Assembly (NCBI GenBank): GCA_022825505.1
Contig: JAJDWR010000044.1
Span: forward strand, 2,220-66,219
Direction: 5' to 3'
Source: Gammaproteobacteria bacterium
GTDB lineage: Bacteria > Pseudomonadota > Gammaproteobacteria > Steroidobacterales > Rariloculaceae
Length of the DNA stretch: 64,000 bases
In this document: positions 2,861-54,097 of the stretch, in pieces
Layout of the letters: every line of letters begins with the position of its first letter
How positions within the stretch are numbered: position 1 is the stretch's first letter
Position numbers and translations under genes: made by a program
The notes under the pieces: generated by a model
Told to the model about the DNA's origin: nothing
Database searches by the model: none
Seen by the model: only the letters and a program-made list of their open reading frames with translations

Positions 2861-3064
2861 ATGAAGGCTAGCGCGTTGAGGGCCATGTCGCCTGACGAAC
2901 TGATGGAAGAGCTGGTCCGGCTTCGGCGGGAACAGTTCGACCTGCGTATGCAGGCTGCCACCGGGCAGGGCGCACGCTCGCACCAGAAGGGCCTCGTGCG
3001 CAGGGATATCGCTCGGGTGAAGACGGTTCTTCGCGAGCTTGACAACGCGGAGCGCGCATCATGA
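2861..3064 (+). CDS. rpmC: 50S ribosomal protein L29
   Basis: 67 aa, position and sequence (..[19 protein letters not shown]..) typical of L29. Confidence 0.95.
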
Positions 3065-3474
3065 CCGGGAACGAAGTGAACGAGACTGCGGTGGAAACCG
3101 AAGCAGAGCAGACGGCCGAGGCGACGGCGGAGCAGGCGGCTGAGCCCGTGGCCGAGGCGACTGCAGAGGAAACGGCCGAGGAAACGGCTGTGCAGGCGCC
3201 CGAGCCGACGGCCGTGCAGAAGACCGAACGCAGGGTCTTCGGGCGCGTGGTGAGCAACGGAGCGAACAAGACCGTTTCGGTGTCCGTCGAGCGGGTCGTC
3301 AAGCATCCGGTCTACGGCAAGTACATCCGGCGGACCACCAGGGTGATGGCGCACGACGAGGACAATGCCTGCCGGATCGGCGACCGCGTCGCGATCGCGG
3401 AGTGCCGGCCGGTTTCGAAGCGCAAGTCCTGGCGGGTAGTGGAAGTGTTCGGCAATAACGGAGCACAGCAATGA
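3061..3474 (+). CDS. rpsQ: 30S ribosomal protein S17 with ~50-aa acidic A/E/T-rich N-terminal extension
   Basis: C-terminal 85 aa (..[43 protein letters not shown]..) is canonical S17. ATG 3061 overlaps the rpmC stop (ATGA). An alternative canonical-length start is GTG 3214. Confidence 0.9.
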
Positions 3475-3839
3475 TCCAGGCACAGACCATCCTGTCGGCG
3501 GCGGACAACAGCGGCGCGCGCCGCCTGATGTGCATCAAGGTGCTCGGCGGGTCCAGGCGCCGCTACGCGCGGATCGGCGACATCATCAAGGTCACCATCA
3601 AGGACGCGATTCCAAGAGGCAGGGTCAGGAAGGGCGAGATGTACAGCGCCGTCGTTGTTCGCACCAGCCACGGCGTACGCCGTGCGGACGGTTCGGCCAT
3701 TCGTTTCGACTCCAATGCCGCGGTGTTGCTCAACGCCCGGCACGAACCCATCGGCACGCGGATTTTCGGACCGGTCACGAGGGAACTGAGAACCAGCAGG
3801 TTCATGAAGATCATCTCCCTGGCCCCGGAAGTGCTCTGA
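3471..3839 (+). CDS. rplN: 50S ribosomal protein L14
   Basis: 122 aa, [27 protein letters not shown].. typical of L14. Confidence 0.98.
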
Positions 3840-3853
3840 GGCGGACGAAGCTC

Positions 3854-4174
3854 ATGGCTGCAAGGATCAGACAGGGCGATGAGGTCATCGTGATCGCCGG
3901 CAAGGACAAGGGTCGGCGGGGCCGCGTGGCGCGCGTTTTCAGCGATGGCCGGGTGGTGGTCGAAAACATCAACATCGCGCGCAAGCACCAGAAACCGAAT
4001 CCGAACGCCGGCGTGGCGGGCGGCATCATCGAAAAGGAGATGCCGCTGGACGGTTCCAACGTGATGGTATTCAACCCCGTCACCCAGCGCGGCGACCGGG
4101 TGGGGTTCCGCACGCTGGCGGACGGCCGCAAGGTGCGTTACCTGAAGTCGAACGACGAAGTCCTGGACGCCTGA
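3854..4174 (+). CDS. rplX: 50S ribosomal protein L24
   Basis: Internal ATG 3854 of ORF 3530..4174 gives [23 protein letters not shown].. (KOW motif), 106 aa. Confidence 0.95.
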
Positions 4175-5048: not shown

Positions 5049-5444
5049 ATGAGTATGACGGATCCCATTGCCGACATGTTGACCCGGATCAGGAACGGGC
5101 AGAAGGCCAGGATGCACACGGTGTCCATGCCCGCATCGAAGATGAAGCTCGCGGTTGCCAACGTGCTGGTCCAGGAAGGCTATCTGGACGATGTGACCGT
5201 CGAAGAAGACGGTGTCAAACGCAGCATGACAGTCACGCTCAGGTACCACGAGGGCGAGCCGGTCATCGAGCATGTTGCAAGGGCGAGCCGTCCCGGTTTG
5301 CGCCTCTATGCGGGCGTCGACGAGATTCCCCGGGTCCAGGGTGGGCTCGGATTGGCGGTGGTTTCCACCTCGAGGGGCGTGATGAGCGATCGGCAGGCCC
5401 GCGATCAGGGTCACGGCGGCGAGGTGATCTGCCTGGTGTCCTAG
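5049..5444 (+). CDS. rpsH: 30S ribosomal protein S8
   Basis: 131 aa, [18 protein letters not shown].. typical of S8. Confidence 0.98.
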
Positions 5445-11871: not shown

Positions 11872-12016
11872 GGCGGCCATGTGCGGAACAGGCTTGTGAG
11901 CTCAATCCCGTCCCGCCATCCCTGGCGGGACGGGAATCGTCGGCTCCTTGCTAATGGCCATCCTTGGCCCGCGCGTCGCCGGCGACGCTCACAAGCCTGT
12001 TCCGCACATGGCCGCC
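11872..12016. repeat. Palindromic intergenic repeat, family copy 1 (divergent arms)
   Basis: 30-nt arms ggcggccatgtgcggaacaggcttgtgagc (11872-11901) and gctcacaagcctgttccgcacatggccgcc (11987-12016) are exact reverse complements. The core contains cccgccatccctggcggg and ggccatccttggcc, shared with the other four copies. Confidence 0.85.
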
Positions 12017-12024
12017 TTTGTTGG

Positions 12025-12738
12025 TTATCGTTGGGGTTGACGCATTTTTTGGCGTTTGCGCCAGGTGCGCAATGTCGCTGCGTGCCATGCGATGCGCAGG
12101 ACGCGCATGACTGTCTCCGTGCGCATGGGCTTGTACAGGGCCGCGTCCTCGGCCGCGATGTCCTTTGTTTGGCCCCGGTACTTGTGTTTGATCCAGGCGT
12201 TTTGGTCGACCTGGCGGACCAGGTCGAACAGGAAGCCGCGGCGGTTGGCCGCCACAACTGCGATACCGAAGTCGATCACGTAGGGTTGCTCGCCGGGGCC
12301 TACAAGGATGTTCTGCTTGCGCTTCAGGTCGCCGTGCGCTACGCCGGCGTCGTGCATCGTCCGGAGGGTTTCGAGCAGCCTTGCAAAGAACTTTTCGCGG
12401 TTCGCGAGTTGGTCCTGAAGTGCTTGCAGCGTATCGCCGGGTATGTGCTCAAGCACGAGGTAGCGGTCGTCGAGGCAGCCGAAACACGTGGGAATACCGG
12501 GAATGCCCTGTAAACGGCGGTAGACCTCCGCCTCTCTTCGGATCGCGGCCCGGCTGATGGTTCCACGCAGCCAGCTTCCGGAGGGTTCCTTGATGGCGAA
12601 GGCGCCGGCCGGACCCTGATATATGCGAATCGAGGCCTGGTATCCAGGGGAGGCTACGATGCCCGCGTCGCTAGAATCGAGCCAGTCAAGTATCGCCTGG
12701 CTTTGGTCCGAACTCAGCGTCTGCCGGTCATTGCTCAT
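12025..12738 (-). CDS. Minimal eukaryotic-like/RIO-Kdo-type protein kinase (237 aa)
   Basis: Kinase motifs seen: FAIKE (VAIK-Lys), REAEVYRRL (C-helix Glu), LVLEHIPG hinge, HGDLKRKQNILV catalytic loop, IDFG. No extended substrate lobe. Very basic C-terminus. Confidence 0.75.
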   Translation of the reverse strand: MSNDRQTLSSDQSQAILDWLDSSDAGIVASPGYQASIRIYQGPAGAFAIKEPSGSWLRGTISRAAIRREAEVYRRLQGIPGIPTCFGCLDDRYLVLEHIPGDTLQALQDQLANREKFFARLLETLRTMHDAGVAHGDLKRKQNILVGPGEQPYVIDFGIAVVAANRRGFLFDLVRQVDQNAWIKHKYRGQTKDIAAEDAALYKPMRTETVMRVLRIAWHAATLRTWRKRQKMRQPQR

Positions 12739-17840: not shown

Positions 17841-18866
17841 GTGGCGTTTGGTCGATTGCGGGAGCAACCCGGTTCGGTTCGGAACGTGACGCGGTATGAC
17901 CCCGACCGGAGATTGGTCGAGTACATTCTCGGGATCACATTCGAGATCTGGGAATGCGGCCACGTCGAACGCATCAACGATTACTATGACGCCGATGCGC
18001 GGATTTTCGCCCTGAGCGGCCTTACCCGCGGTGCCCGGGGAATGATCGAAGGCACCCGGCGGATGCTCGAGGCGTTTCCCGACCGGCTGCTGCTGGCCGA
18101 TGACGTCATCTGGTCCGGCTCTCCGGAGGAGGGCTACTACTCCTCGCACCGGGTGGTCAGCCCCATGACGAACACCGGCCCGTCGGCGTACGGACCGCCT
18201 ACGGGCAAACGGGTCCGCACACTGACCATCGCCGACTGCATCGTCGAGGGCGGCCGGATTACCTGCGAATACCTGCTGCGCGACCACTATTCCCTGGTGC
18301 GGCAACTGGGGGTCGACCCGCGGCGGGCCGCGCGGCAGATGGCGGGCGAACGCGGTCCCGACTGCGAACGGTGGATAGAGGAAGAAATCGCTAGGCTCGC
18401 CCGGCGCAGCGGGCCGGTGCAACGGTTGCCGCTACCGTCGCCCGATGCGGATACACGGGGATTCGCGCGGCGGGTCATCGAAAACCACTGGGCAGGGAAG
18501 AGCGAGGCGATACCCGACGCCGCCTACGCCGGGTACGCTGTGATGCGCCGCGCGCCCGACGCGCTCCACTCGGGAAGGGACGCCATCAAGGCCCACTACG
18601 CTCGCTTGCGCCACGCCATTTCCGGCTGCAATGTGTCGGTCGATCATGTCGCGTGGCAGCCTGTGGATGGCGACGGGATGCGAATTGCCGCCCGGTGGTC
18701 CGTCGCGGGCACGCATACGGGCGACTACCTCGGGATTCCCGCCACGGGCCGGCCCGTCTACGTGCTGGGCGCGACGCACTGGCGAATCGTGGGCGGACGC
18801 ATCGCGGCTGAGTGGACTGTTTTCGACCGGCTGGGGGTGATGTGTCAGATCGTCTCGCGACCCTGA
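17841..18866 (+). CDS. Tandem SnoaL-like/NTF2-fold protein, type B copy 1
   Basis: Two modules (..YILGITFEIWECGHVERINDYY.. and ..AGTHTGDYLGIPATGRPVYVLGATHWRIVGGRIAAEWTVFDRLGVMCQI..). Paralog of 33804..34934. An alternative start at GTG 17886 aligns with the paralog. Confidence 0.7.
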   Translation: MAFGRLREQPGSVRNVTRYDPDRRLVEYILGITFEIWECGHVERINDYYDADARIFALSGLTRGARGMIEGTRRMLEAFPDRLLLADDVIWSGSPEEGYYSSHRVVSPMTNTGPSAYGPPTGKRVRTLTIADCIVEGGRITCEYLLRDHYSLVRQLGVDPRRAARQMAGERGPDCERWIEEEIARLARRSGPVQRLPLPSPDADTRGFARRVIENHWAGKSEAIPDAAYAGYAVMRRAPDALHSGRDAIKAHYARLRHAISGCNVSVDHVAWQPVDGDGMRIAARWSVAGTHTGDYLGIPATGRPVYVLGATHWRIVGGRIAAEWTVFDRLGVMCQIVSRP

Positions 18867-19022
18867 CGGGCGGTCGCATGCACGCGCGGCACTTGCGCGC
18901 TTAACCAAGCCCGCCATCCCTGGCGGGCTTGGATCGGCGTTCGGCGCGCCTGCCATCCATGGCGCCGCGCCGAACACACGACGCGCGCAAGCGCCGCGCG
19001 TGCATGCGACCGCCCGTCAGGG
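18861..19022. repeat. Palindromic intergenic repeat, family copy 2
   Basis: 40-nt arms 18861-18900 and 18983-19022 are reverse complements (ccctgacgggcggtcgcatgcacgcgcggcacttgcgcgc / gcgcgcaagcgccgcgcgtgcatgcgaccgcccgtcaggg). The core has cccgccatccctggcggg and gccatccatggc. The left arm covers the stop codon of the upstream gene. Confidence 0.9.
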
Positions 19023-19044: not shown

Positions 19045-20184
19045 CTATCTCCACAGCGCTGCGCTTGCCATCGCCGCGCCTTCCACGAGGCTGCCGAGCT
19101 TCGCATAGACGATGTCTTCGTCCACCGCACCGAAACCTGCAAACGTGGAGAAGCCGCAATCCGTACCGGCCATCACCCGCTCGCGCCCGACGATGTCCGC
19201 GTACCGCTGAATGCGTTGCGCGACCAGCCGCGGATGTTCCACGAAATTCGTGGTGGAATCGATCATGCCGGGAATCAGGATCAGGTCGTCCGGCAGGTCC
19301 ATGGCCGCCATTACCTCCCATTCATGGGCGTGCCGGGGATTGGACGCTTCGAACAGCAGCGCGCCCACGGCGGCCTCGAGGGCGATCGGCAGCACCATTT
19401 CCAGGGGCGCGTCGCGGTGATGGGGCCCCTCGTAGTTGCCCCAGCAGATGTGCAGTCTCACCCGGTCCCTCGGCAGGTTGCGGATGGCGTGGTTGAGTGC
19501 CTCCACATGCAGGGAGGCCAACTGTCGATACTCTTCATCCGGCCGACCCTTGAACATCATGTGCCGTCCGAGGCCCAGGTCGGGCGAATCCAGTTGCAAT
19601 ACGAGGCCCGCGTCGACGATCGCGCGGTACTCGTGAGACATGGCGTCGGCCAGCGCGTAAAGATAGGCCTCATGGGTGGGGTAGTACCTGTTCGGCTGAA
19701 ACAGGGCAATGACGCCGGGGGACGCTGCGTTCATGAACCCTTCAGTCGGCTTGTGCCGCGCAAGCGCTGCCTTGAAGTTGCCGATGTCGGTGGTGACCGG
19801 TCCCATATCCTTGACCTCGATCTCCCCGATGCAACAGGGGCGCCGGTAGGTGGGCGTGCCGCCTGAAGAGGCCAGTTTCCTGAGGTAGCCGGGATAGTCT
19901 TCCAGGTCCGCGGGGGGCTCGCGGTCGCTGTCTCCCGCGAAGCCGGTGACCCGGTCGCCGATATAGGTGGCATAGCTGATCTTGCTCATCTCGCCGTCGC
20001 TGACGATGTCGATCCCGGTGTCCCGCTGGCGCGCGACCACCGCATCCACCGCGTCACGGAAAATATCGTCGGCGTCGGCGACCGTTTCGCCCCTTTCCCG
20101 GGCAAAGACCGTATCCGCAACGAGTTTCGAGCGCGGCAGACTGCCGACATGGGTGGTCAGAATTCGATCCTGGCTGTACTTCAT
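19045..20184 (-). CDS. Cobalamin-independent methionine synthase (MetE C-terminal domain)-like Zn enzyme, 379 aa
   Basis: MetE-like TIM-barrel pattern (..ILTTHVGSLPR.., ..DIVSDGE..). Putative Zn ligands are conserved: LHICWGN (His-x-Cys), a Glu in ..LFEASN.., and GTDCGF (Cys). Confidence 0.7.
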   Translation of the reverse strand: MKYSQDRILTTHVGSLPRSKLVADTVFARERGETVADADDIFRDAVDAVVARQRDTGIDIVSDGEMSKISYATYIGDRVTGFAGDSDREPPADLEDYPGYLRKLASSGGTPTYRRPCCIGEIEVKDMGPVTTDIGNFKAALARHKPTEGFMNAASPGVIALFQPNRYYPTHEAYLYALADAMSHEYRAIVDAGLVLQLDSPDLGLGRHMMFKGRPDEEYRQLASLHVEALNHAIRNLPRDRVRLHICWGNYEGPHHRDAPLEMVLPIALEAAVGALLFEASNPRHAHEWEVMAAMDLPDDLILIPGMIDSTTNFVEHPRLVAQRIQRYADIVGRERVMAGTDCGFSTFAGFGAVDEDIVYAKLGSLVEGAAMASAALWR

Positions 20185-32628: not shown

Positions 32629-32648
32629 CTTGTTGGTTTCCGTGGGGC

Positions 32649-32799
32649 GTCGTGAGGTTGTGTGCGGACAGCCCTCGCGGGCTTAACTTCACCCGCCATC
32701 CCTGGCCGGCTCAAATCGGCGCGCGGCGCTCCTGGCCGTCCATGGCCCAGCGCCGCGCGCACGACGCCCGCGAGGGCTGTCCGCACACAACCTCACGAC
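32649..32799. repeat. Palindromic intergenic repeat, family copy 3
   Basis: 33-nt arms gtcgtgaggttgtgtgcggacagccctcgcggg (32649-32681) and cccgcgagggctgtccgcacacaacctcacgac (32767-32799) are exact reverse complements. The core is the conserved cttaac..cccgccatccctggccgg..ggcgctcctggccgtccatggcc..cacgac. Confidence 0.9.
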
Positions 32800-33800
32800 T
32801 TTGTCGGGCTGATCGAAGTGCAGCGGTCCAGGGCGTCTACGCCGAGCAGGCGGAGGTAGTGAAGTAGGTCGATGAAGATCCAGTTTTCGGCCAGCTTGTC
32901 GCCGTCGCGGCGGTAAATGTCGACGACGCGCATCTCCGTGGGCCTGCCGGACGCGGGCAAACCGAGAAAGCCTTCGCCCTGTTTCATGTTCATGTTGGGC
33001 CAGCCGAACCAGCCGCCGTAGGTGCCTTCTGCGTGCTCCAGCACGTGGCCGTTGAAGCGGATGTCTACCAGGCCGCGGCGAAACGGCTGCTGGTGCTGAA
33101 GCTGGTACCGTTCGATGGTACAGGTGGCGCCGATTCCCCAGGGGCCGAACCAGATCATGTCTTCGTGCCAGGTCCTGCGCAGCATGTCGGCGGGCGATTC
33201 CATGCTGTCGCCGACAAGGTCGTCGCACATCCGAAGGATGAGGTCCAGGGTCTTGCGGGATTCGGCCTCGTCCTGGGGGTCGAAAAGCACGCCGTCGGCG
33301 GTTCGCGGCCCCGGATTGACGATTGCGGCGCCGGTCTGTACGGGCAGCGGTTGTAGTCCCGCCTGCATCATTACGCTGATGATGTCCACCCAGAGCGCCG
33401 ACTCGGCGATCCGTCCGTCTTCGATGCGATGGAACTCGCAGTAGGGCAGGAGCACGATCTTGCCGGTGGGAGGGATTCCCAGCCAGGGGTTGTCCATGAG
33501 GCCCATGAACTTCCCCATGCTGGTGACCCAGAGTGCGCCGTCGATGAAGTTCGGGCCGGCGAAGAAGATGTCCTGGCGTCGCTGCATGGCATTCAACGAC
33601 TTGCGCAACGGCTGCCAGACCGTGGCCGCGACGGCATCGGCGCCGTCAAGCTCGTTGAACGGGTGGACGCCGCGAAAATGGTAGTTGGCGGCGGCGTAAT
33701 GCCCGATCGCGGCGGCGATTCCGTCCGGCGGGGCGGCTTCGGTCGCCCGGAAGTAGTCCAGTACGATGGCCTTGGCCGTTTGAATCTTGTCGGTACGCAC
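32793..33800 (-). CDS. Tandem SnoaL-like/NTF2-fold protein, type A copy 2
   Basis: 335 aa. Paralog of 15639..16661 (..IPPTGKIVLLPYCEFHRIEDGRIAESALWVDIISVMMQAG.. and ..LPASGRPTEMRVVDIYRRDGDKLAENWIFIDLLHYLRLLG..). The stop codon lies inside repeat copy 3. Confidence 0.7.
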   Translation of the reverse strand: MRTDKIQTAKAIVLDYFRATEAAPPDGIAAAIGHYAAANYHFRGVHPFNELDGADAVAATVWQPLRKSLNAMQRRQDIFFAGPNFIDGALWVTSMGKFMGLMDNPWLGIPPTGKIVLLPYCEFHRIEDGRIAESALWVDIISVMMQAGLQPLPVQTGAAIVNPGPRTADGVLFDPQDEAESRKTLDLILRMCDDLVGDSMESPADMLRRTWHEDMIWFGPWGIGATCTIERYQLQHQQPFRRGLVDIRFNGHVLEHAEGTYGGWFGWPNMNMKQGEGFLGLPASGRPTEMRVVDIYRRDGDKLAENWIFIDLLHYLRLLGVDALDRCTSISPTKS

Positions 33801-41798: not shown

Positions 41799-42776
<978 letters not shown>

Positions 42777-42791
42777 TGGGTTTGGTCGTGG

Positions 42792-42943
42792 GTTGCGGCG
42801 GGCGCGCGCGGACAGCCCCCGCGCGCTCAACCTCGCCCGCCATCCATGGCGGGCTCGGATCGGGTTGCGGCGCTCCTGGCCATCCATGGCCCCGCGCCGC
42901 GCCCACGACGCGCGCGGGGGCTGTCCGCACGCGCCCGCCGCAA
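42792..42943. repeat. Palindromic intergenic repeat, family copy 4 (inside the ybeZ-ybeY junction)
   Basis: 34-nt arms 42792-42825 and 42910-42943 are reverse complements with one mismatch. The core has cccgccatccatggcggg and ggcgctcctggccatccatggcc. Confidence 0.9.
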
Positions 42944-42954
42944 CGAGGTGGACC

Positions 42955-43425
42955 GTGACGTCGCGGGCCGAGGGCGAAATCGTGGTGCAGAAGGCGGTGC
43001 GCGGCGATTCGGTCCCTTCCGCCGCACGTATCCGGCACTGGGTCGGCCGGGCCCTGGGTGAAGCACCGGCGGGCGAGGTTACGGTGCGCGTGGTGGACGA
43101 GGCGGAGATGGCGCGTCTCAACGAGCGCTACCGTGGCGGCAGCGGCGCCACCGATGTGCTTGCTTTCGCCTACGGGGACCCGGCCTGCGCCGAAGCGGAA
43201 CGGGCCTTCGGGGACCTGGTCATCTGCGCGGCGGTGGTGGCGCGTGAGGCGGCGCGCCGGGGCAAGCCGCTTCAGGCGCATTGGGCGCACATTGCCGTGC
43301 ACGGCGCGCTGCACCTGCTGGGCTACGACCACGAGGAGGCCGAACAGGCCCGGGTCATGGAGCGCAGGGAACGGGAACTGCTCGAAGCGATGGGATTTGG
43401 CGATCCCTACGCTGAAGAATCATGA
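42955..43425 (+). CDS. ybeY: rRNA maturation endoribonuclease YbeY
   Basis: ..TDVLAFAY.. and the metal site ..HGALHLLGYDH.. Start moved to GTG 42955 because the 5' part of ORF 42742..43425 merely translates repeat copy 4. Confidence 0.9.
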   Translation: MTSRAEGEIVVQKAVRGDSVPSAARIRHWVGRALGEAPAGEVTVRVVDEAEMARLNERYRGGSGATDVLAFAYGDPACAEAERAFGDLVICAAVVAREAARRGKPLQAHWAHIAVHGALHLLGYDHEEAEQARVMERRERELLEAMGFGDPYAEES

Positions 43426-52261: not shown

Positions 52262-52368
52262 GAATCCAATTGCCTGTTGCTGGCGGGGAGAATCTCGATC
52301 TCCGAATCAAGAGTGCGGAGGGTGTTCCCGCTGTTGTGACCGGCGCCGATCCCGGTGAAAATACCGCC

Positions 52369-53139
52369 ATGCGAATCCTCAGCTGGAACGTCAACGGGTT
52401 GCGTGCCTGCGTCCGCAAGGGCTTTCACGACTTCCTCGACTCGTCGAAAGCGGACATCATCGGCCTGCAGGAGGTTCGTGCGTTCGAACACCAACTGGAG
52501 CCCCGCACCCGTGCCCCGGAAGGGTGGCATGCCGCCTTCTCCCCGGCGGAACGGCCCGGCTACAGCGGGGTCGCAATCTATTCCCGCCAGCAGCCGACCC
52601 GTATCGAGACCGCGCTCGGGGAGCCGCGCTTCGACGCCGAGGGCCGGCTGATCATCGCGCACTTCGGACGGATGGCCGTCGCTTCGGTCTACTTCCCCAA
52701 GGGCAGCGGGCGCGACCGTGACAACAGCCGCGTTCCCTACAAGCTCGACTTTTATGCTTCAGTGTTCGACCGGATCCAGGTGCTGCGCCGCCGCGGGCCG
52801 GTCTACGTGATCGGCGACTACAACACGGCCCACGAGGCCATCGACCTGGCCCGGCCGAAGACCAACACGAAGGCCAGCGGATTTCTGCCGGAGGAACGGG
52901 CCGAGATTACCCGGTGGCTCGATGCGGGCTGGGTGGACACATTCCGCGCCCGCCATCCGGATGCGCCGGACCACTACACCTGGTGGCGGCAATGGGGCGG
53001 TTGCAGGGAGCGGAACGTAGGGTGGCGCATCGACTACGTGCTTGCGTCGCCCGGCGCCAACAAGCGCGTCACCGACGCCTTTATCTGGCCCGACGTGATG
53101 GGGTCCGATCACTGTCCGGTGGGGGTCGACCTGGAGTGA
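52369..53139 (+). CDS. xthA: exodeoxyribonuclease III
   Basis: ATG 52369 inside ORF 52270..53139 gives MRILSWNVNGLRACVRKGF..IGLQEVR.. and C-terminal ..GSDHCPVGVDLE, 256 aa. Confidence 0.93.
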   Translation: MRILSWNVNGLRACVRKGFHDFLDSSKADIIGLQEVRAFEHQLEPRTRAPEGWHAAFSPAERPGYSGVAIYSRQQPTRIETALGEPRFDAEGRLIIAHFGRMAVASVYFPKGSGRDRDNSRVPYKLDFYASVFDRIQVLRRRGPVYVIGDYNTAHEAIDLARPKTNTKASGFLPEERAEITRWLDAGWVDTFRARHPDAPDHYTWWRQWGGCRERNVGWRIDYVLASPGANKRVTDAFIWPDVMGSDHCPVGVDLE

Positions 53140-53164: not shown

Positions 53165-53309
53165 GCGAGGGTGTGTGCGGACAGCCCTCGCCCGCTAAAC
53201 TTTGCCCGCCATCCCAGGCGGGCTCAGATCGGCGCTCGGCGCTCCTGGCCGTCCATGGCCCCGCGCCGAGCACACGACGCGGGCGAGGGCTGTCCGCACA
53301 CACCCTCGC
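53165..53309. repeat. Palindromic intergenic repeat, family copy 5
   Basis: 30-nt arms gcgagggtgtgtgcggacagccctcgcccg (53165-53194) and cgggcgagggctgtccgcacacaccctcgc (53280-53309) are exact reverse complements. Conserved core. Confidence 0.9.
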
Positions 53310-53350: not shown

Positions 53351-54097
53351 TCAGGTCGCGAGCGCGGCCTTCGGATCGCCGCCAAGTTCACGGAGGTAGT
53401 CGTCATAAACGGCTTCAAGGGGATCGGTACGAGCTTTTTCCACGAGCCTGGCGACCGGGGGGAATGCTTCGAGCGATCGCGCATATTCCCTGACCGGTTC
53501 CGCGACGGGAATGCCATAGGTTCGAAAGCGCGTCAGCACCGGAAAGTACATCGCGTCCACAATGCCGAAATTGCCGAACAGGAACGGCCCGCCGGAACGG
53601 TCGAGGCATTCGCTCCAGATTTCGAAGACTCGCGAGATGTCTTTCCGCGTCGCGTCGCTCGGCGCATGGTCGGGAACGCGGCCGAAGAGGTGGCAGGATA
53701 GTTCGCCGCGCATGGCCAGGAACCCGGTGGCCATCTCACAGCTCACGGCGCGGGCCTGCGCGCGGGCCAATGTATCGTCCGGCCAAAGGCGGGCGGCGGG
53801 GAATGCCTCGGCCGCGTATTCGCAGATGGCCAGGGATTCGTGAATGGGCGTGTTGTCCACCCAGAGCGTGGGGAAAAGGCCGTGAACGCTTCCGAGCGCC
53901 CGCCGCTCCGCGAGTTGCGAATCCTCGATGGTCACCAGGTTGCCTGATGTGTCTTCCGGGTCCCCTTGCCGGCGAACATCGTCAAGTTCGACCGTTACGG
54001 TTTCGAAATCAGCTCCGGCATGAGTGAGCACCAGCCACGGGCGCATGGACCACGACGAGTATCGCAGACTGAGACAGATGAGCCTCAGGCGGGGCAT
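53351..54097 (-). CDS. glutathione S-transferase family protein
   Basis: 248 aa. Thioredoxin-like N-terminal domain (..LSLRYSSWSMRPWLVL.., ..HESLAICEY..) and helical C-terminal domain (..FLFGNFGIVDAMYFPVL..). Confidence 0.7.
   Translation of the reverse strand: MPRLRLICLSLRYSSWSMRPWLVLTHAGADFETVTVELDDVRRQGDPEDTSGNLVTIEDSQLAERRALGSVHGLFPTLWVDNTPIHESLAICEYAAEAFPAARLWPDDTLARAQARAVSCEMATGFLAMRGELSCHLFGRVPDHAPSDATRKDISRVFEIWSECLDRSGGPFLFGNFGIVDAMYFPVLTRFRTYGIPVAEPVREYARSLEAFPPVARLVEKARTDPLEAVYDDYLRELGGDPKAALAT

Follow-up and report, generated by a model that had tools for sequence, protein, structure and literature searches.

We analyzed a 64-kb stretch of a gammaproteobacterial genome (contig JAJDWR010000044.1; hereafter the window) and focused on a palindromic intergenic element at positions 32649 to 32799, one of five copies in the window of a previously unnamed repeat family. 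The family has reached numerous intergenic sites without duplicating the target site; its copies persist chiefly just past gene 3' ends and are inherited at orthologous sites in different species. With moderate confidence, we regard them as lineage-specific, non-autonomous palindromic DNA repeats, similar to REPINs and bacterial interspersed mosaic elements (BIMEs), whose stem would be kept perfect by template switching during replication and whose core would be bound by a putative dimeric factor. The family is a variant of the bacterial repetitive extragenic palindrome (REP), REPIN and miniature inverted-repeat transposable element (MITE) kind, and not a new kind of system. From sequence comparison, we infer that a DNA-level process keeps the long stem, and not selection on RNA pairing.

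The anatomy of the element was derived from an alignment (A4) of 72 distinct copies from related genomes. Read 5' to 3' on the plus strand, the consensus consists of a left arm, TNAA, hairpin 1, ATCG, hairpin 2, CACGAC, and a right arm. The left arm has a modal length of 31 bp and a weak consensus, GCGAGGGCGTGTGCGGACAGCCCTTGCGCGC. Hairpin 1 has the consensus CCCGCC-ATCCNT-GGCGGG on a covarying lower stem, and hairpin 2 is long and irregular, with the tip GGCC-(A/G)TCCAT-GGCC, such that both hairpins present a like loop and upper stem as a single strand (GCC-ATCCNT-GGC). The core, about 85 nt long, has a mean pairwise identity of 83%, compared with 58% for the arms, for which the random expectation is 30%. 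The loops of both hairpins are invariant save for one or two positions, which argues for recognition by a sequence-specific, probably dimeric, factor. At least two core types exist; the lower stem of each hairpin differs between them. The consensus ends in GCGAGGG...CCCTCGC, the termini being the most variable part of the element, and its feet show single-nucleotide preferences: a C ahead of the left arm in 36/60 loci and a T past the right arm in 37/60.

Covariation and upkeep of the outer stem

Across the 72 copies, 97.0% of the cells of a 54-pair consensus structure were paired, compared with 77.3% in shuffled alignments and 31–47% with slid partners. Cells changed on both sides numbered 689 vs 162 in the shuffles, and none of 500 shuffles reached the observed value. 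In the outer helix, 30 of the 31 pairs covary, and the 31-bp arms are 96% paired. An initial annotation of this DNA, based on the five window copies, had taken the arm covariation as a sign of selection on a long stem. The covariation is real and strong in the larger alignment, and a long stem is indeed kept while its sequence drifts, but this by itself is no argument for selection on an RNA stem.

Three observations point instead to a process acting on DNA. G-U pairs are nearly absent from the outer helix: leaving aside the three outermost pairs, they fill 2 of about 2,000 cells (~0.1%). The orthologues of window copy 1, located downstream of rplQ, differ from it by three pair changes in locus L079 and five in L004 (L-numbers denote 8-kb loci sampled from related genomes); all of these changes are compensated, with no intermediates, and the flanks are 85–89% identical. 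Finally, 24 of 73 palindromes reach 3–11 bp beyond the 31-bp family consensus into locus-unique sequence, where about 2–3% would be expected by chance. In copy 2, this extension takes in the TGACG of the neighboring gene's stop region, and the same TGACG is found in a relative that lacks the element. Together, the near absence of G-U, the fully compensated changes between orthologues and the growth into the flanks argue for DNA-level templated copying between the arms. Were an RNA helix the object of selection, G-U pairs should be accepted and the stem should not grow into neighboring genes; such selection is therefore disfavored.

Template switching is known to create, perfect and extend hairpin stems (PMC8794818, PMC13100816). 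In the mechanism that we propose, the palindrome would fold during replication, and the nascent strand or repair synthesis would copy one arm off the other through intramolecular template switching, or quasipalindrome correction. The arms would then drift at about the neutral rate, remain Watson-Crick paired and at times grow into the flanks. Such upkeep calls for caution with covariation-based "structured RNA" calls in repeat-rich genomes.

With orthologues collapsed, the remaining arm mismatches are strongly skewed when read on the plus strand: C:A plus A:C amount to 21, and G:T plus T:G to 2. These mismatches gather in an alternating G(C/T)G(C/T)G(C/T)G tract (A4 columns 9–15 and 137–143), and the few copies that run against the GC skew show an asymmetry of the same sense. 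In the core helix P3 (hairpin 2), wobble pairs lie on the plus strand, with G-U in 19/72 copies at columns 91–96 and U-G in 8/72 at columns 75–110. Wobble pairs gave no decision on the functional strand, since the outer stem points to the minus strand and P3 to the plus strand.

Five copies in the 64-kb window

The window holds exactly five copies, and motif, nhmmer and covariance-model searches all returned the five that the initial annotation had listed. The core motif CCCGCCATCCNNGGCNGG has five plus-strand matches against 1.2 expected, and GGCCRTCCWTGGC has five matches in the elements against 0.9 expected; both motifs are confined to the five elements, on the plus strand only. An nhmmer profile of the core, run over the 64 kb, detected exactly these copies, and a covariance model with filters off scored them at 129–155 bits, with the next best hit at 19.9 bits. 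All five lie on the plus strand, a shared orientation that the initial annotation had not remarked on. They are spaced 7–14 kb apart, among housekeeping genes. The limits listed below were obtained by ungapped arm extension.

32649..32799, plus strand: copy 3 (the focal copy), whole palindrome, 34-bp perfect arms, 145.4 bits; it lies after the stop codon of an SSF transporter gene (32628) and before a SnoaL-like gene, 32793..33800(-), whose stop codon falls within the right arm
32649..32682, plus strand: left arm of copy 3, GTCGTGAGGTTGTGTGCGGACAGCCCTCGCGGGC; its inner ~31 nt are homologous to the family arm consensus
32683..32765, plus strand: conserved core of copy 3, a three-way junction of TTAA, hairpin 1, ATCG, the long irregular hairpin 2 and CACGAC
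32692..32709, plus strand: hairpin 1 of copy 3, CCCGCC-ATCCCT-GGCCGG; the minus-strand loop is A-G-GGA-U
32716..32764, plus strand: hairpin 2 (P3) of copy 3, whose lower stem covaries among copies
32734-32746, plus strand: tip of hairpin 2 of copy 3, GGCC-GTCCAT-GGCC; the minus strand reads A-U-GGA-C
32766..32799, plus strand: right arm of copy 3, the perfect reverse complement of 32649-32682
11872..12016, plus strand: copy 1, 30-bp arms, type B core (lower stems of hairpins 1 and 2 differ), 129.3 bits; 109 nt past rplQ (L17), at the end of the ribosomal-protein/rpoA operon, and convergent with a RIO/kinase-like gene, 12025..12738(-)
18861..19022, plus strand: copy 2, 40-bp arms with one A:C mismatch, 139.5 bits; its outer 9 bp (CCCTGACGG / CCGTCAGGG) hold the stop codon of a SnoaL-like gene, 17841..18866(+), and it is convergent with a MetE-like gene, 19045..20184(-)
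42792..42944, plus strand: copy 4, 35-bp arms with one C:A mismatch, 134.8 bits; between the co-directional phoH (41799..42776) and ybeY (about 42960..43425), within the phoH-ybeY-corC cluster
53165..53309, plus strand: copy 5, 31-bp perfect arms with the modal termini GCGAGGG...CCCTCGC, 155.4 bits; between an Exo_endo_phos gene, 52270..53139(+), and a GST-like gene, 53351..54097(-)

Each copy is predicted to fold into an outer stem of 30–40 bp around two hairpins, forming a three-way junction; the folds of all five copies agree with the shared two-hairpin core within copy-specific arms that had been described initially. On both strands, the predicted minimum free energies as RNA lie between -120 and -148 kcal/mol, with z-scores between -10 and -18, and copy 3 folded as DNA has a predicted energy of -77.5 kcal/mol (z = -14.9).

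Gene context and orientation

To describe the genomic setting of the family, 77 elements were grouped into 53 independent loci, with genes called by a codon-usage model. Convergent gaps accounted for 16 of the 29 fully classified independent loci, and a divergent gap was found once. Among co-directional gaps, the element lies in sense in 7 (about 14 when downstream genes farther away are counted) and in antisense in 5 (about 7). A gene end abuts the 5' side in 33/42 loci and the 3' side in 26/35. The elements sit behind genes and avoid promoters, without a clear preference for transcriptional sense. The window copies follow this pattern: as had been reported in the initial annotation, four of the five occupy convergent gaps, the exception being copy 4, whose neighbors phoH and ybeY are co-directional, and two engulf the stop codon of a neighboring gene (17841..18866(+) and 32793..33800(-)). 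The accompanying suggestion that the elements act as bidirectional terminators did not hold for intrinsic termination: no T-run follows the stem on either strand, and a terminator scan over copies 1–4 called none of them. In two scanned stretches of the window, terminator-like sites were at or below the number found in shuffled sequence.

The plus strand of the element is co-oriented with the local GC skew in 50/69 copies (p = 2e-4). In the chromosome OZ241971.1, the orientation switches where the skew changes sign, and 15/19 copies are consistent with this rule. IS200/IS605 elements show a replication-related orientation bias (PMC5027513), and the skew-linked orientation of the present family would fit single-strand, replication-fork-linked elements. 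Target-site duplications were not detected: the longest direct repeat in the 30-nt flanks averaged 4.67 nt, compared with 4.75 nt in mismatched controls. These 30-nt flanks, in 65 independent loci, are G/T-rich on both sides when read on the plus strand (G 0.35, T 0.24, A 0.14); the words TTGG, TTTG and TGGT are enriched 4–8 times and ACCA is rare (e.g., window 32629-32648 and 12017-12040).

Inheritance, loss and rearrangement of copies

Of the ten contigs encoding an identical L17, every one has copy 1 or else ends at its site or immediately ahead of it, and many loci are occupied in several species. The retention of copy 1 in these contigs and the multi-species loci argue that the copies are old and vertically inherited. 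At least 70 copies with orthologues in several species make up a clean natural dataset on the way in which a long, perfect hairpin can last despite sequence turnover.

Three pairs of filled and empty alleles were identified. L019 (filled) and L025 (empty) have flanks that are 99% identical and read GCGCTTCCGC-[32-bp arm, core, 32-bp arm]-GCGGAAGCGC-TTGAGC vs GCGCTTCCGC-TTGAGC. The copy 3 site in L108, at 94% protein identity, holds only a 40-nt spacer made of the 5' leader and the outer ~18 nt of the left arm, and the outgroup L110 has no spacer there. The absence of a spacer in L110 and the stub in L108 argue for an insertion of copy 3 followed by a partial deletion in the relative. Since L110 also lacks the 5' leader of copy 3 (~20 nt), this leader was part of the inserted DNA. 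The third case is the copy 2 site in OZ242031.1 (L112), where CCCTGACGG, the outermost 9 nt of the left arm, is all that remains of the element. In all three empty alleles, the outer left arm (9–18 nt) is retained and the right arm is gone, and 3–4 nt of microhomology (CGCT, CGG) were found at two of the three junctions, those of the two close pairs. In our reading, the empty alleles would be palindrome-stimulated, microhomology-mediated deletions; the long hairpin also makes the element fragile, as these three stub-leaving losses show. They resemble the asymmetric REPIN excisions described by Bertels and Rainey, in which a few bp of one end stay behind (PMC3116915). Comparisons of L019 with the window as further filled and empty pairs, for copy 4 and for the L019 element, were dropped, as the loci are rearranged and do not align cleanly.

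The locus downstream of rplQ revealed a different kind of change. The window (11872-12016) and its close relatives carry a type B core, and L079:4906-5050 and L004:5770-5914 carry a type A core; the two types differ at about 35 of 85 core positions, and the arms and flanks are clearly homologous. Judging from these alignments, the core has been replaced at this locus while the arms stayed. A cassette model, in which cores insert into empty arm palindromes, was rejected, as no core-less palindromes were found and orphan arms proved to be tandem left-arm units beside full copies. In L003:6870-7095, L036 and L066:1-230, the left arm is lost to AT-rich DNA starting 3–9 nt from the arm/core junction (GCTNAA), and two of these copies lie at contig ends. 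It is possible that the palindrome is a hotspot for rearrangements. We ruled out an insertion sequence (IS) at a fixed left-arm site in these three loci, because the replacing DNA is unrelated between them and the mate of the L003 arm was not found upstream.

Hosts and genomic distribution

We scanned genomes, one per species, with a strict two-hairpin pattern. The 91 matches were nearly all in metagenome-assembled genomes (MAGs) of "Candidatus Rariloculaceae" or in unclassified or sponge-associated Gammaproteobacteria, and several host MAGs bear sponge-project names (SB0676, p16x34, jk18). Four of the hosts are complete chromosomes of 3.8–6.0 Mb. The same pattern matched six times in Joint Genome Institute (JGI) metagenome contigs and not at all in viral contigs, and a plasmid search returned no match. 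The initial annotation had raised the option that these are members of an already named family. No window match was obtained from Rfam at gathering thresholds, where relaxing the cutoff to E<=10 added only a chance 16-bit miRNA match, and literature searches yielded no mention of repeats in this bacterial group. An identity with Rhizobiales RIME-type repeats, guessed from GC content, was ruled out, as the genome scan places the family in sponge-associated Gammaproteobacteria.

Syntenic stretches of host genomes are 83–95% identical to the window. The window probably derives from the organism present in sample KELL22-1_SAMN22237330, which encodes an identical MetE-like protein and whose region downstream of rplQ (copy 1 and its flanks) differs only in the loop of hairpin 2. 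A few matches came from contigs binned as Dehalococcoidia. One of these, L039 (JAJDWF010000062.1), is 100% identical to L006 from the gammaproteobacterial MAG JAJEFE01 over the 275 nt compared. These matches are thus probably binning errors, and for L039 the cross-phylum occurrence is probably not real.

In complete chromosomes, the copies are unevenly placed. All 19 strict-pattern copies of OZ241971.1 lie at 0.24–2.76 Mb of 5.03 Mb, and 12/13 of those of OZ242031.1 at 0.16–2.67 Mb of 6.0 Mb. In these two chromosomes and in OZ244860.1, copies gather in the half around the GC-skew switch that we took as the origin, and the terminus half is nearly empty.

The elements also have a practical effect, as they break short-read assemblies and create spurious ORF (open reading frame) extensions in annotation. 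Short-read contigs often end in, or at the edge of, an element (L102-L106, L111, L028, L032, L043, L057, L064, L073, L076 and L091), and in the window the ORF 42742..43425 joins an element to ybeY.

Relation to known repeat families

The initial annotation had called the elements MITE- or REP-like and without a transposase. They do form a transposase-less family of REP/MITE-like character, but they lack target-site duplications, and most copies lack the GTAG that, by definition, lies 5' of the foot of a REP hairpin (PMC3333891). The closest resemblance is to REPINs and BIMEs: tens of copies or more per genome, an extragenic location, a length of ~100–150 nt, a whole unit that forms one long hairpin in which compensatory changes are common, and no transposase inside the unit. 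Persistence at orthologous sites, tandem partial arrays and asymmetric excision or deletion products are shared as well (PMC3116915). However, REPINs conserve their two ends (the REPs) and vary the spacer, whereas this family conserves the center (83%) and varies the arms (58%), and the conserved part is a branched two-hairpin core. In addition, a REPIN family comes with a single-copy RAYT (Y1/HUH) gene, typically with the repeats on its flanks, and searches of about 0.76 Mb around the copies detected none. The family thus widens the known REP/REPIN-like range to elements with a conserved branched center and disposable arms, in poorly known sponge symbionts.

IS200/IS605 miniatures, known as palindrome-associated transposable elements (PATEs), and IS608-type elements are comparable in that two hairpins of like sequence could serve a dimeric Y1 enzyme, that DDE-type terminal inverted repeats and target-site duplications are lacking, and that orientation appears biased relative to replication (PMC5027513). 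In IS200/IS605 elements, unlike the present family, no 31-bp perfect palindrome surrounds the ends. Such elements insert 3' of a conserved target tetra- or pentanucleotide, with a strand bias toward the lagging-strand template. The present family, for its part, has single-nucleotide foot preferences only, and no relative of tnpA or tnpB was found near its copies.

Classical MITEs (Correia/CREE, ERIC, RUP and bcr1) are likewise short, non-coding, palindromic, intergenic, often co-transcribed and multi-copy. In this family, however, target-site duplications are absent, the terminal sequences are the least conserved, and the sampled loci held no IS with related ends. We know of no parent IS with matching ends. 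Integron attC sites are imperfect or perfect palindromes of 60–150 nt that conserve structure over sequence, are used as folded single strands and show a replication-linked orientation; the present elements differ from them in having no R''/R' core sites (RYYYAAC ... GTTRRRY), no cassette array and no intI, and in that their conserved region is central. CsrB and RsmZ RNAs share with the minus strand of both inner hairpins the ANGGAX hexaloops closed by C-G and set 40 nt apart. Here, this motif belongs to a dispersed DNA palindrome, whereas CsrB-type small RNAs (sRNAs) come from dedicated genes that have a promoter and a terminator; orientation shows no bias toward transcription of the GGA strand, and Rfam returned no Csr/Rsm match. 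Finally, the elements differ from intrinsic terminators, as their GC-rich hairpin lacks a U-tract.

Evaluation of alternative explanations

The weakest step of the proposed mechanism is the putative binding of the invariant twin loops by a dimeric trans-acting factor, which would act on the folded single strand at the fork. A candidate Y1/HUH enzyme, RAYT-like or similar to the TnpA of IS200, would explain the spread, the missing duplications and the replication-linked orientation. Several results weigh against this reading. No IS200-TnpA- or RAYT-like ORF was detected in the ~0.76 Mb around 100 copies by phmmer or by an HUH...YxxxNP motif, a search that covered the sampled loci only. The REP hallmark is found at the feet of just a few independent loci (CTAC at 8/60 right feet and GTAG near 3/60 left feet). 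The orientation signal is confounded with gene-strand bias within the 8-kb loci, because most copies follow a plus-strand gene and coding strands are G-rich. No insertion is polarized beyond doubt: all three filled and empty pairs can be read as deletions, although copy 3 was, judging from L110, inserted at some time. The excess of C:A and A:C mismatches is not expected from template switching alone, and the occurrence of different core types within orthologous arms demands an extra process. Lastly, the long constraint on the core at fixed loci and the confinement of loop variation to two positions, N and X below, fit a host RNA function at least as well.

The most specific form of such a function concerns CsrA. 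On the minus strand, both loops read C-[A-N-G-G-A-X]-G, hexaloops set 40 nt apart directly on the stem with a C-G closing pair, and across the 72 copies the loop invariants on this strand are A, G, G and A, with N and X as the only variable positions (columns 51 and 91, in hairpins 1 and 2, respectively). The high-affinity consensus of CsrA/RsmE is an ANGGAX hexaloop atop a stem (PMC4005645); the CsrA motif obtained by SELEX is RUACARGGAUGU, and a dimer can bridge 10–63 nt (PMC7652899). The core RNA of the minus strand could therefore form a tandem high-affinity dimer site for CsrA/RsmA on a long clamp stem, through which copies in 3' or 5' untranslated regions would couple genes to Csr or titrate CsrA. 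The match of invariant and variable loop positions to the code, the agreement with the SELEX motif, the spacing within the bridging range, the arm mismatches, which mostly stay G-U on the minus strand (21 vs 2), and the far stronger conservation of the core than of the arms all speak for this idea, which we nevertheless consider unlikely. Flanking genes would transcribe the plus-strand sense in ~33/53 loci, and in ~17 loci, including copy 4 within the phoH-ybeY cluster, only that sense; co-directional sense copies are at least as common as antisense ones, and the wobble-type pairs of P3 lie on the plus strand. Moreover, an outer stem of ~31 bp free of G-U goes far beyond the needs of a CsrA site, no csrA gene was found among the sampled loci, and the GGA in the loop is a short motif. 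A combination of both views, to which we give a small chance, is a self-maintaining palindrome that would carry a portable twin ANGGAX-hairpin cassette, serving as a dispersed Csr sponge or recruiting genes into the Csr regulon, while template switching keeps the clamp stem perfect. Were this correct, copies spread behind and between genes would place dozens of high-affinity CsrA/RsmA dimer sites in mRNAs, and the family would combine an exchangeable core with a defined post-transcriptional role for the host. The family raises a testable connection of a dispersed repeat with the code that CsrA recognizes.

E. coli REPs are mRNA stabilizers, and the setting of our elements invites a similar role. 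Selection as bidirectional terminators or as 3'-end stabilizers that block exonucleases, with the stem kept by selection on RNA folding, would explain why copies are so common at the 3' ends of genes and in convergent gaps, their near absence from divergent promoter gaps and the extremely stable hairpins on both strands; the few terminator-like sites in the two scanned stretches would leave room for another 3'-end device. We judge this explanation rather improbable. Beyond the missing U-tract on either side and the failure of the scans to call any of copies 1–4, copy 4 lies within an operon, where termination would be harmful, and neither a stabilizer nor a terminator has need of a sequence-invariant, branched twin-loop core. 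RNA-pairing selection would also tolerate the G-U pairs that are almost absent here, and purifying selection against insertions in other places would leave the elements at 3' ends just as well. It is highly improbable that the elements are structure-specific recombination sites of the attC or dif type, i.e., folded single-strand substrates of a tyrosine recombinase that exchange the core or integrate DNA. As in attC sites, structure is conserved and arm sequence is not, and the orientation is replication-linked. The different core types within orthologous arms (B in the window, A in L079 and L004) look as if the center were exchangeable, and in L003, L036 and L066 the left arm is replaced near the GCTNAA junction. 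Yet we found no GTTRRRY/RYYYAAC core sites, no integrase and no arm palindromes without a core. The copies are 7–14 kb apart among housekeeping genes and do not form a cassette array, and the replacing DNA, being unrelated between loci, is a better fit to palindrome-associated rearrangement.

Tandem arrays, nested elements and neighboring insertions

Several loci hold partial or nested forms of the element. Directly upstream of a complete element, L084:7630-7800, L029:5640-5750, L082:5220-5290, L042 and L008:880-960 carry two to four tandem 54-nt units. Each unit consists of the 5' leader, the left arm and G(C/G)T(C/G)AAG, and has neither core nor right arm. In L085:4700-5040 (OZ241971.1), a complete element is nested in hairpin 2 of another, truncated element.

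Next to the copy 5 orthologue, 14 nt downstream (corresponding to window 53323/53324), an insertion of 1.75–1.9 kb was found in L005:3317-5235, L020:5119-7038 and L071:3160-4914. It was dismissed as a transposase source, as it encodes small unrelated ORFs (189, 104, 85 and 82 aa) with no transposase evident by eye. The gap between the SnoaL-like and MetE-like genes has been colonized by two repeat families. In L113:2630-2860 (OY761822.1), orthologous to window 18861-19022, it holds a different nested palindromic element, with outer arms GCTTGCGCCGTAGGAATTC... / ...GAATTCCTACGGCGCAAGC bearing GTAG/CTAC and inner arms CCGTCCCTTCG / CGAAGGGACGG. The left arm of this element, too, holds the stop codon of the gene.

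Hairpin 1 may be an older and more widespread module. In other Gammaproteobacteria, including a Rudaea MAG, tandem arrays of 46–49-nt units were detected in L030 (~3030-3170), L067 (~3790-3990) and L097 (~5200-5270). Their unit contains the same hairpin, (C/G)CCGCC-ATCCNT-GGCGGG, together with TGCTCCTGCA. The three arrays match no Rfam family. In L067 and L097, the array directly adjoins an intrinsic-terminator hairpin that, read on the GGA strand, is placed upstream of it and not downstream. On these two grounds, we rejected the idea that the arrays are CsrB-like sRNAs.

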